Source of the DNA: Antedon mediterranea
Taxonomy: Eukaryota > Animalia > Echinodermata
Assembly: GCF_964355755.1 (NCBI RefSeq)
Contig: NC_092675.1
Location: forward strand, 24,276,912 to 24,340,911
Reading direction: 5' to 3'
DNA: 64,000 nucleotides
Numbering within the stretch: the stretch's first letter is position 1; each line of letters begins with the position of its first letter. The notes under the pieces were generated by a model that did no database searches, had not been told where the DNA came from, and saw only the letters and a list, made by a program, of their open reading frames with translations. This document shows positions 1 to 56,743 of the stretch, one piece after another. A program made the translations under genes and the position numbers.

Positions 1-2430
1 CAAGTTCTTCTGCGTTTTCATTGTTGTTTGTATTTGTTTCTTTTGTATTCATACCAAATAAAATATCCTTTGTTGCTAGTACATCAAAAAGACACATACG
101 ATCATTACCACATGCAGCAATCGACTCATTGTAAAATTCTGTACCAGAATATTGTTCTACAAGATCTTCTAAGAACAATGGTACAAATGTTAGATTATTC
201 AATGCTTCCCATGATTGACCATCAGTGTAACTGAAAAGTGAAGACTCCTCTGTAGTTCTCCCTGAAAAAAATGAGAGGAAACATAGGTTGAAATTATGTA
301 ATGAGTATAAAACTATACTTTAAATAATTGCTAATGATAATACTTCAATTCAATTTTCCAATTCATTTCACATTTATTCAATTAATGAAAACTTAAACAA
401 TGTAAACAATATAAACAAATAATGATTTCATTAATTTGGATCAGACTTAGAGGCCAAGGCCTGTCTCAGAAAAACATTATGAGGTTGGTTTCACTTTTGG
501 GAATCATCAACGAAATTATCAAAAATTACATTACTTGTTGTACCTAAAATTTACTTACTGCGAAACGGTTGTTAACAAGATCAGATCCATCAACAAGAGC
601 GTTGAAATTACAAACCCCACCATTAACACATTCACAAATTGATTAATGCATCAGTTATGATCGGCCAATGTATCACATTAGTGATGACGTATTTATACTG
701 TATAGGAAAATTAATCTCTCATCCTATATCGCCACTGATTACCTTACATAGATTTAGCAAATATAATTAATACTGGCCTTACATGTATTTCCAAAATGAA
801 AACCGTCACTATCTGTAACCAGTCCATCTTCTGGCACTGTCATCATACTATTATTTGGAAATGTAAGATCATCTGTTATATCATCATTCCAAACACCTGA
901 GAAATAATGCAATAATAGATAATAAAGTTGAACATTTGTATTCCGACACGTTTCATCATAATATTTAGGCTTATTTAAAGCACGTTTTCTGTAATACTAT
1001 TAACACACGCATCATTGTTAAAGACAAATATCGACACACAGAGTGGAAAAGGCTAAATTATCACAGTACATCTGAATTTCTATGAAATGATTAGTTGACA
1101 CGATTATGGAAACAAAAAGATTACCAAAGCATGCAAGACATTACTTTCGATAAGAGGACATAGATTACATGCACCTACCATACAATCCCTTTGTTGCTCC
1201 TTTGTATTTTTCTGGAATAGAAAATACAGCCTCCAATACAGTACCAGTCAATGAAACGGAAATAGAAATGCCAGATAACCAAGATGCAATTATTCGATTT
1301 TCAGTTGAATTTCCAGTTGAATTTGCAGTTGAATTTCCAGAAGGAAGACTTATTATAAACCCAGTGTCAGATGGCGGTGTGTACGGACCTAAACATAATA
1401 ATGTTACTTTAATAATTATCTTTTTTTTTTTATCTATTCACTGCCGTACATGAAAAACAAATAAAATAAAACCCAAAAAGTAACAGTATTACAAACGATG
1501 TGAAACTTGGAATGTAAATGTGGATTCACTTGAAATAACTGACGCTTACTTGACTGCTGCGGAAATTCATTTTGGGTTTGATGTGATTTCAGTTTAAGAA
1601 GCTATTGTTAGAAATTGTTAGGAATGCTTTAATATTATTTGTTTTGTTCTTGTTATTTGGGAAGATAAACTTCTTGAATAGTTCATTGCAGTACTATGCT
1701 TACGCTTACTAAATATATATCTGGTCTAGCACTAACTTTGTTTATTGATATTATTGTAAGTTTATACTAAAAGTTAAGAATGTAATATGTACACATACCA
1801 GTGTCTCTGTAAGATATGTATTATACGAAATCTTGGCTTCTCAATACATTATGCAACAAAAAATATAATGGGAAAATAGGTAATACCTTCATTGAGACTA
1901 GATTTATTTACTGCAATGCTTCCATTAACCAAAATATCAAAGTCAGTTGCATTGTCATTCAACGTCATTTGTACCTGTGTGTAAACGTATAGAAGATAAA
2001 GCAGCGCAATAGTAAATTTTTATTGAGTTCAGATATTGCAATAAATACACTACACTACAAACAAGTCTAGGTAAAATCAATCAGAAAGTAAAATATTATT
2101 CTTATTATTTCAATGGATAACTAACATTTTTATTATTATCTTTCACAAAAAAAAAGTGGTCCATAAACGTTATTGTGTATTGTAAACTATAAAATGAATC
2201 AGCTTAAAAGTAAAAAACGTAATGTTAACCTACCGTTGTTGGGCCTCCATTAGCTACAAATGCTGAAAATATTGTCGCCTGTACATCCTCCTCACTCTTA
2301 GGCTTTTGCATTCTACCTTGGAATATAAATTCACCATCGTTGACGGTGGCAAGAACAAATTCTCCAATACCGTTACAAGTATACTCAAGGCCATCAAGTG
2401 TACGGATGTGAGGATCACCAAACATCCAAC
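1..2430 (-). CDS. VWD domain with GDPH site plus downstream Cys-containing segment (MUC4/SUSD2-like)
   Basis: Exons 2234-2430 ([25 protein letters not shown]), 1887-1974, 1179-1388 (..[10 protein letters not shown]), 783-896 ([15 protein letters not shown]), 1-261 ([25 protein letters not shown]). Confidence 0.92.

Positions 2431-56743: not shown

Follow-up and report, generated by a model that had tools for sequence, protein, structure and literature searches.

Can a chain of serine proteases and a MUC4-like mucin be the product of one gene? [quoted passage not shown] Following up this proposal, we found that the proteases and the mucin are very likely linked in one transcript, as shown by spliced contigs from a study separate from the one that supplied the DNA runs, and that the resulting architecture is RNA-supported, apparently undescribed so far and built from known parts. 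That the proteases are displayed on the mucin stalk is something we infer from homology.

The window has a composition of 31.6% G+C and holds a single large minus-strand gene, for which our model comprises 82 exons running from position 56743 to base 1 (17,832 coding nucleotides, 5,944 codons, no stop), with AG at 82 of 82 acceptors and GT at 81 of 81 donors, so that the in-frame joining first claimed for the locus was reproduced in full. The median intron length is 371 bp, the largest introns being one of 3,945 bp that contains repeat elements (53974>50028) and one of 1,826 bp within protease 2, and a tblastn search of the window with the model's own exons (E 0.01) returned no additional exon-like piece outside the model. 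The chain reads, in order, LDLa/CUB/MAM arrays with three S1 proteases, a region that we call block X, a threonine-rich stalk, and an LDLa-Sushi-EGF-NIDO-AMOP-VWD-C8 series, which amounts to 23 LDLa, 13 CUB, 7 MAM, 3 S1, 2 Sushi and 2 EGF modules plus one NIDO, AMOP, VWD and C8-3 each (Table 1). Pfam searches with 42 of the 82 exons matched the families LDLa, MAM, CUB, Trypsin (10 of the 12 protease exons), Sushi, EGF_CA, NIDO, VWD and C8-3_MUC4; the remaining LDLa, CUB and MAM exons were named by plain likeness to these. Considering that 69 of the 81 introns are in phase 1 and that the exon boundaries were our own choice, in-frame joining is weak proof of one gene, and because an open frame alone is insufficient the one-gene case rests on the RNA evidence.

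Five public sequencing runs contain the region 8700-18200, among which run X1 (study P1) was taken as RNA-like and runs X2-X4 (study P2) as DNA-like. X1 displayed CT..AC intron-skipping joints that are absent from X2-X4 over 8620-18450, and it contains a fraction of 0.33 of the sampled words of 8700-18200, against 0.31 expected from exons alone. RNA support was obtained for 31 of the 33 junctions tested, and the other two, which include 7769>7487, are supported indirectly. Between 18086 and 8620 all 17 junctions are supported, 11 of them as listed joints (including 17947>17590, 17443>17247, which leads from the end of protease 2 to an LDLa exon, 17149>16876, 16763>16517 and 12548>11987) and six by exact length inside a 3,145-nucleotide contig. 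Starting in protease 3, this contig reaches the stalk exon, which it enters through a spliced joint before stopping inside the repeat at about 8529, and the 13 of 13 anchor positions that equal the spliced model fix the junction 14759>14437. In the region 7860-1, where X1 alone was used, at least 14 of 16 junctions are among the joints listed, including 5882>5396. Thus, of the junctions singled out by the initial annotation as checks, 12548>11987 and 5882>5396 appeared directly as RNA joints and 14759>14437 lies inside one contig, while for 7769>7487, which is not listed, the contig at 7487 shows a splice to an exon whose last letters are CAG. The three proteases close, as had been claimed, with exons that end at phase-1 GT donors (34608, 17443 and 14759) and not at stops; all three S1 domains are internal, and the RNA splices past the ends of the second and third, which are linked to each other by overlapping spliced contigs. 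The first S1 domain is linked to them through the gene model only.

The locus might instead be split at the stalk. Under this alternative a protease gene with a proline/threonine/serine-rich (PTS) tail would be followed by an LDLa-to-VWD gene, or the main product would be a short mucin-only isoform and the long form a minor read-through, in agreement with the break of the contigs in the repeat, the missing 7769>7487 joint and the orthologue in the crinoid Anneissia japonica, a free-standing mucin that has a signal peptide of its own. The intron concerned, however, is 281 bp long, has a good donor and lacks a signal exon, and the Cys-rich modules above the stalk also lie above the base in both crinoid relatives. 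The contig that ends at 7487 carries six extra letters, of which only three, common to the intron and the stalk exon, could be aligned; as only three of the six fit the intron, this end results from splicing, not intron retention, and the partner exon has CAG as its last letters; seven exons of the model do, the stalk exon being the neighbouring one. Spliced contigs on both sides of the stalk show a similar depth (110-174), which is a poor measure. We consider a split at the stalk very improbable.

An assembly chimera or a dead duplicated array would be suggested by modules that are 76-92% alike at the DNA level and by a stray exon copy in the last intron. Nonetheless, the DNA-like runs fill 30 of 30 bins of 8620-18450, the RNA contig of the other study keeps the same order, and the copies are too divergent to be haplotypes. 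The ratio of nonsynonymous to synonymous substitution (dN/dS) against the nearest copy is below 1, at 0.24-0.74, for 26 of 26 upstream CUB and MAM exons, several pairs being reciprocal so that the values are not independent, and none of the 20 exonic RNA differences examined creates a stop. This explanation, to which we give hardly any credence, is largely refuted for positions 1-18086.

Upstream of these positions the alternative is two neighbouring genes, one with LDLa/CUB/MAM modules and protease 1 and the other with proteases 2 and 3 and the mucin, the boundary lying above 20655. The protease-mucin fusion would then still stand, but its S1 domains would number two, of which one is active. 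The RNA test covers junctions at or below 18086, the prevailing phase-1 introns let modules join in frame easily, and read-through of the donor at 34608 meets a stop after 18 codons, all of which would suit two genes. What the sequence offers in the way of a boundary, on the other hand, is scarce. The next exon follows protease 1 after 101 bp, and the middle-array introns do not exceed 989 bp, two of the longest being tandem duplicates (79% alike over 2.1 kb) and not promoters. A signal-peptide scan of the minus strand gave no candidate under strict settings and 37 rows from 948 ATGs outside exons under loose settings, none of which combines a strong donor with the required phase and a sound hydrophobic core, in line with the earlier statement that no signal-peptide exon separates the parts. 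In addition, proteases 1 and 2 are 47% identical (1 and 3, 43%; 2 and 3, 34%; window domains only) and have similar upstream modules, as expected of an intragenic duplication. Two genes are therefore unlikely in our judgement, and we regard it as probable that all 82 exons belong to one transcript. AATAAA-type signals found after protease exons were considered as gene ends and given no weight, their frequency being 2.3 per kb in these introns. Near 33516, 32210 and 30870 on the minus strand, the duplicated introns that separate intact CUB exons contain short frames similar to the final part of the LDLa exon at 34506; judged by eye they are apparently decayed LDLa exons, and they gave no tblastn score at E 0.01.

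The three protease domains had been annotated as S1 proteases without distinction, and all three are indeed of the Trypsin family, but protease 2 is without catalytic motifs. The TAAHC, DIAL and GDSGGP motifs are all intact in proteases 1 and 3, whose activation sites read Arg-Ile-Ile-Gly-Gly and Arg-Ile-Val-Gly-Gly, respectively, and whose equivalents of position 189 are Gly in protease 1 and Asp, as in trypsin, in protease 3. In protease 2 the His is replaced by Ser and the Asp by Asn, and both the Gly-Asp-Ser-Gly stretch and the activation site are gone; the short start of its last exon is confirmed by the RNA joint 17947>17590. Because the His, Asp and Ser motifs are missing, protease 2 is predicted to be a catalytically dead pseudo-protease, and proteases 1 and 3 are predicted to be active. 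The dead domain is also under constraint, given dN/dS values of 0.30 and 0.49 for protease 1 versus protease 2 exons. In S1A zymogens a propeptide Cys and the Cys of the QP-x-C motif form a bond that tethers the activated domain, and both residues are kept in all three proteases. Enteropeptidase was the best match of the last exon of protease 3 among 453 PDB sequences matched (E 3.5e-17). Stretches of CUB, MAM and LDLa modules as long as about 1,300 residues separate the S1 domains, and more than 2,000 residues of mucin follow the last one. TAAHC, DIAL and DSGGP are the catalytic criteria applied in PMC6767649. A 56-bp satellite of about 15 copies occupies 18563-19538, within the 1,826-bp intron of protease 2.

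Downstream of the proteases, block X contains two Cys-rich modules flanking an LDLa. Pfam, run exon by exon, matched nothing in it except the LDLa, and its exon 11987-11631 gave two weak matches among 1.84 billion proteins, both to unrelated repeat proteins; the single-sequence predicted fold of a block X exon had a mean predicted local distance difference test score (pLDDT) of 43, too low for use. A presumed likeness to CILP or FAM171 found no backing in Pfam, run exon by exon, or in the protein search with one exon. The terminal Cys-rich modules do recur in crinoid mucins, with three in the Anneissia protein XP_033100757.1. The stalk, within a single exon, consists of 46% Thr, 15% Glu and 11% Pro in a tandem repeat with a period of 102 bp, so that a PTS-rich tandem repeat lies N-terminal of NIDO as in MUC4-like mucins, and it is predicted to be glycosylated. 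NIDO, AMOP and VWD follow in MUC4-like order, a GDPH motif standing where VWD starts; AMOP was placed by BLAST with the Pfam-defined AMOP of a relative (P0002, E 2e-29), having no exon-by-exon Pfam match. The last intron holds an 82-bp minus-strand copy (559-640) of the 3' end of a downstream exon, donor included, which is 87% identical to residues 1592-1621 of XP_033100757.1; the RNA joint 783>261 skips this copy, and another contig has the same sequence downstream of base 1.

The protein of about 6,000 residues first proposed is confirmed as 5,944 residues in the window, but this is a minimum, as both ends of the gene lie outside it. The exon 56743-56627 carries an acceptor and is thus not the first exon. 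At the other end the C8-3 exon and its transcript continue, and the RNA contig past base 1 reads EGF-type sequence like that of XP_033100757.1. As this likely orthologue runs 1,570 residues past the point where the window ends, we estimate a full length of about 7,500 residues.

Table 1. Features of the minus-strand gene, with positions in the window and residues (aa) of the 5,944-residue chain.
Feature	Position	Strand	Residues	Content and evidence
Upstream array, exons 1-25	37728..56743	-	1-1769	LDLa, 6 CUB, 4 two-exon MAM; Pfam on one sample exon per type
Upstream array exons 1-10	56743-56627, 55876-55733, 55221-54895, 54431-54318, 54111-53974, 50028-49690, 49171-49067, 48829-48485, 48352-48209, 48033-47704	-
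Upstream array exons 11-20	46913-46776, 46534-46394, 46060-45722, 45113-45009, 44769-44428, 43542-43399, 43219-42884, 42715-42578, 42340-42200, 41899-41561	-
Upstream array exons 21-25	40966-40862, 40686-40339, 39670-39527, 38606-38274, 37838-37728	-
Protease 1	37391-37214, 36718-36462, 35933-35791, 34761-34608	-	1770-2013	translation, Pfam
Middle array	21035..34506	-	2014-3340	5 LDLa, 6 CUB, 3 MAM; starts 101 bp past protease 1
Middle array exons, first part	34506-34402, 33992-33666, 32740-32399, 31409-31068, 30548-30207, 29676-29533, 28883-28554, 28362-28258, 27801-27460	-
Middle array exons, rest	27088-26945, 26165-25839, 25439-25335, 24588-24250, 23263-23120, 22427-22095, 21339-21244, 21148-21035	-
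Protease 2	20655-20472, 20169-19913, 18086-17947, 17590-17443	-	3341-3583	translation, Pfam
Two LDLa exons between proteases 2 and 3	17247-17149, 16876-16763	-		RNA joints 17149>16876, 16763>16517
Protease 3	16517-16340, 16017-15761, 15241-15099, 14921-14759	-	3655-3901	translation, Pfam, 3,145-nt RNA contig
CUB and three LDLa, then start of block X	12548..14437	-	3902-4199	on 3,145-nt RNA contig
Exons of this part	14437-14090, 13865-13761, 13557-13450, 12880-12548	-
Block X	8676..11987	-	~4200-4668	~470 aa; two Cys-rich modules flank an LDLa; module homology, RNA joints
Block X and stalk exons	11987-11631, 11104-10997, 10812-10648, 10007-9824, 9456-9061, 8871-7769	-
PTS-type stalk	7769..8675	-		~302 aa, within exon 8871-7769
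LDLa, Sushi x2, Ca-binding EGF x2	5882..7487	-	4971-5212	Pfam; RNA joints 7362>6893, 6720>6499, 6326>6217, 5882>5396
Exons of the LDLa-Sushi-EGF part	7487-7362, 6893-6720, 6499-6326, 6217-6089, 6004-5882	-
Base exons, NIDO to C8	5396-5236, 5035-4868, 4458-4267, 4044-3546, 3196-3011, 2734-2615, 2430-2234, 1974-1887, 1388-1179, 896-783, 261-1	-
NIDO	3790..5396	-	~5264-5472	Pfam, RNA joints
AMOP	2670..3750	-	~5485-5635	BLAST, RNA joints
VWD	783..2430	-		GDPH motif at aa 5659; Pfam, RNA joints
C8-3 (MUC4-type)	1..261	-		Pfam PF23263, E 8.6e-11; exon and transcript continue beyond window

The window also contains an element with (GACA)n tracts, about 850 bp long, which occurs four times (50852-51688, 52909-53738, 58130-58938 and 59003-59817; copies 91-94% alike, the last two mutually inverted) and is probably a non-autonomous mobile element. 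At 62760-63479 on the minus strand there are two frames split by a stop, the upper of which matches Pfam RVT_1 (E 4e-07), likely a decayed retroelement of the type without long terminal repeats, and 52153-52640 is a long A/G-rich low-complexity tract inside the 3,945-bp intron.

The best match of the NIDO exon is a protein of the crinoid Antedon mediterranea, and over the base, from NIDO to C8, the window protein is 70% identical to XP_033100757.1 (725 aa) and 74% identical to XP_033100756.1, both from Anneissia, and 58% identical to XP_071954227.1 from Antedon. In a tree the window protein forms a clade with these three and Antedon XP_071944792.1 at a support of 100 in the Shimodaira-Hasegawa-like approximate likelihood ratio test (SH-aLRT), and it groups with the Anneissia proteins at 90; its two vertebrate members that bear the name mucin-4 are about 29-30% identical to the window protein. 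This tree is a quick version of 25 rows, midpoint-rooted and with the other fetched relatives left out, and is silent on whether the proteases were gained or lost. XP_033100757.1 looks complete: behind a signal peptide come three Cys-rich modules, homologues of the pair in block X, then two HYR, an LDLa, EGF and the base, followed by an EGF array, SEA, a hydrophobic helix and finally a tail; XP_033100756.1 likewise ends in SEA, hydrophobic helix and tail. XP_033100757.1 and XP_071954227.1 resemble the window protein in the upstream Cys-rich modules, LDLa, EGF pair and GDPH; unlike it, the models of these two and of XP_033100756.1 are without protease, CUB or MAM, and XP_033100757.1 has two HYR and three modules where the window protein is without HYR. 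The XP_071954227.1 model starts inside a Cys-rich module. Because XP_033100757.1 is without protease (it has no Pfam Trypsin match), protease display is not a conserved function of the family, and the fusion was likely either gained by this lineage or paralogue or lost in Anneissia.

Wider searches for relatives gave 13 and 93 proteins, among which the N-terminal modules matched were HYR, SRCR and Sushi. A profile of the three window proteases matched none of 107 fetched proteins, 41 of which have the NIDO-AMOP-VWD base, at protein lengths searchable up to 6,083 aa; the searches spanned 292-2000, 3171-5000 and 1911-6083 aa, so that a longer orthologue could not appear. The top structure matches of XP_071944792.1 are Mesh and SUSD2. 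This 492-aa 'mucin-like protein' ends where the window exon 1388-1179 ends, as if reading through the donor, and is likely a fragment or a truncated copy. XP_033100756.1 is a tandem copy beside XP_033100757.1. The first 77 residues of XP_033100756.1 are unalignable with the family and by eye retroelement-like; its family match begins at an exon boundary, and the model looks mis-started.

Given these relatives, the window protein is probably a MUC4-like transmembrane mucin with tethered proteases, restricted to a lineage. We favour, with moderate confidence and by analogy, a membrane-anchored mucin that holds its proteases over an epithelium, with proteolysis at an exposed mucous surface as its most likely job. 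Beyond the window the chain would continue with an EGF array, SEA and a transmembrane helix, a type I membrane anchor as in the Anneissia orthologue, to a total of about 7,500 aa, and, following what has been suggested for MUC4, it may cut itself at GDPH into a large outer portion and a membrane portion. The stalk would carry O-glycans and be extended. Protease 3, predicted to be trypsin-like from its Asp189, could cut the Arg-Ile sites of itself and of protease 1, for which Gly189 predicts another specificity. The activated enzymes should then remain tethered instead of being released, since the propeptide Cys and its partner are kept and the chain continues by peptide bond. The LDLa/CUB/MAM arrays and the dead protease 2 may serve in substrate binding or as spacers, and the surface concerned could be that of the gut or the food groove, with digestion, mucus turnover or defence as the purpose.

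The main functional rival is release as in polyserase-1: one gene, whose product is a polyprotease like ovochymase or polyserase-1 that is secreted or shed, the proteases being set free and the mucin base serving mainly for delivery or storage, e.g., in egg coats or secretory granules. Polyserase-1 sets the precedent, being membrane-bound and yielding three independent protease domains according to the available text of PMC1435904, and both the Arg-Ile activation sites of proteases 1 and 3 and the shedding points offered by the SEA domain and GDPH of the orthologue would allow it. Nevertheless, the 5,944 residues contain no furin-type R-x-R/K-R site, a peptide bond joins protease 3 to the CUB-stalk side, and the cysteines for tethering are in place, for which reasons we hold such release to be rather unlikely.

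Several observations count against a tethered, membrane-anchored protease mucin made from one transcript. The window contains neither a start codon with signal peptide nor a membrane helix for the gene; the closest relative, XP_033100757.1, starts at its own signal peptide and is without protease; and the Antedon XP_071954227.1 model shows no transmembrane segment. The RNA evidence comes from one run, in the form of assembled contigs instead of long reads or single molecules, and the RNA status of X1 is a guess, accepted solely for its spliced joints. All tested junctions lie at or below 18086, so that 48 of the 81, those upstream, including 34608>34506, fall outside the RNA test. Within the tested part 7769>7487 and 6089>6004 are not among the joints listed, and no single contig crosses the stalk repeat (aa ~4717-4940, inside one exon).

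Each half of this protein has known counterparts. Ovochymase is a multi-S1 chain with CUB spacers, and enteropeptidase carries LDLa, CUB and MAM modules ahead of a single trypsin-like C-terminal domain, with an N-terminal anchor and a predicted disulfide tether. Type II transmembrane serine proteases in general have a single terminal protease and an N-terminal anchor, whereas the proteases of the window are internal and the anchor is predicted to be C-terminal. Drosophila Nudel and insect Sp22D/Tequila are mosaic proteases with LDLa repeats and an internal protease or a Ser/Thr-rich region; they are not known to have a NIDO-AMOP-VWD base. The polyserases 1-3 resemble the window chain in bearing three S1 domains, not all of which are active (in polyserase-2 one of the three is), and the window chain adds long spacers and a mucin (PMC1435904, available text). 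On the mucin side, the available text of PMC8660890 describes MUC4 as a PTS region followed by NIDO-AMOP-VWD with GDPH, at which cleavage is proposed, and that of PMC9080433 describes cnidarian mucin4-like proteins with an N-terminal CUB, ZP or FN3 added. Vertebrate MUC4 and the cnidarian proteins share the PTS region and the NIDO-AMOP-VWD base with the window protein, and neither in them nor in Mesh or SUSD2 was an S1 domain found by us or reported in these texts. Trypsin domains often gain and lose partner domains, as stated in the accessible part of PMC6767649, which names NIDO, AMOP or VWD neither in its main text nor in two of its supplements. The accessible parts of PMC7853314, PMC10381214 and PMC4948705 do not mention a protein with S1 and NIDO-AMOP-VWD either, and none was found in the literature searched, a scope that leaves out most subscription journals and some supplements, nor in the protein searches up to 6,083 aa. 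The initial impression that this architecture had not been described thus holds within these limits.

The most far-reaching reading, which we put forward tentatively, is that of a self-activating brush of tethered proteases, at least about 7,500 residues long, that arose within feather stars by fusion of a multi-protease gene to a MUC4-like mucin; protease 3 would activate itself and protease 1, the domains would stay covalently attached at differing heights over the glycocalyx of the cell, and the arrays would catch food or microbes to be digested at the surface. If true, it would be a catalytic mucin, for which the unfused Anneissia orthologue provides a natural control. MUC4-type transmembrane mucins are viewed as barriers, signalling scaffolds and protease substrates; here one carries proteases in its own transcript, RNA-backed over the protease-to-stalk span. 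The surprise is tempered by the frequent exchange of partners by trypsin domains, by the known families to which all modules belong and by a fusion seen in one species so far. The locus further lends itself to studying how domains are gained or lost, since a relative with a 70%-identical base starts at its own signal peptide and is without proteases, and if the protein stays whole it would form a tethered enzyme brush, a new mode of proteolysis at a mucous surface.

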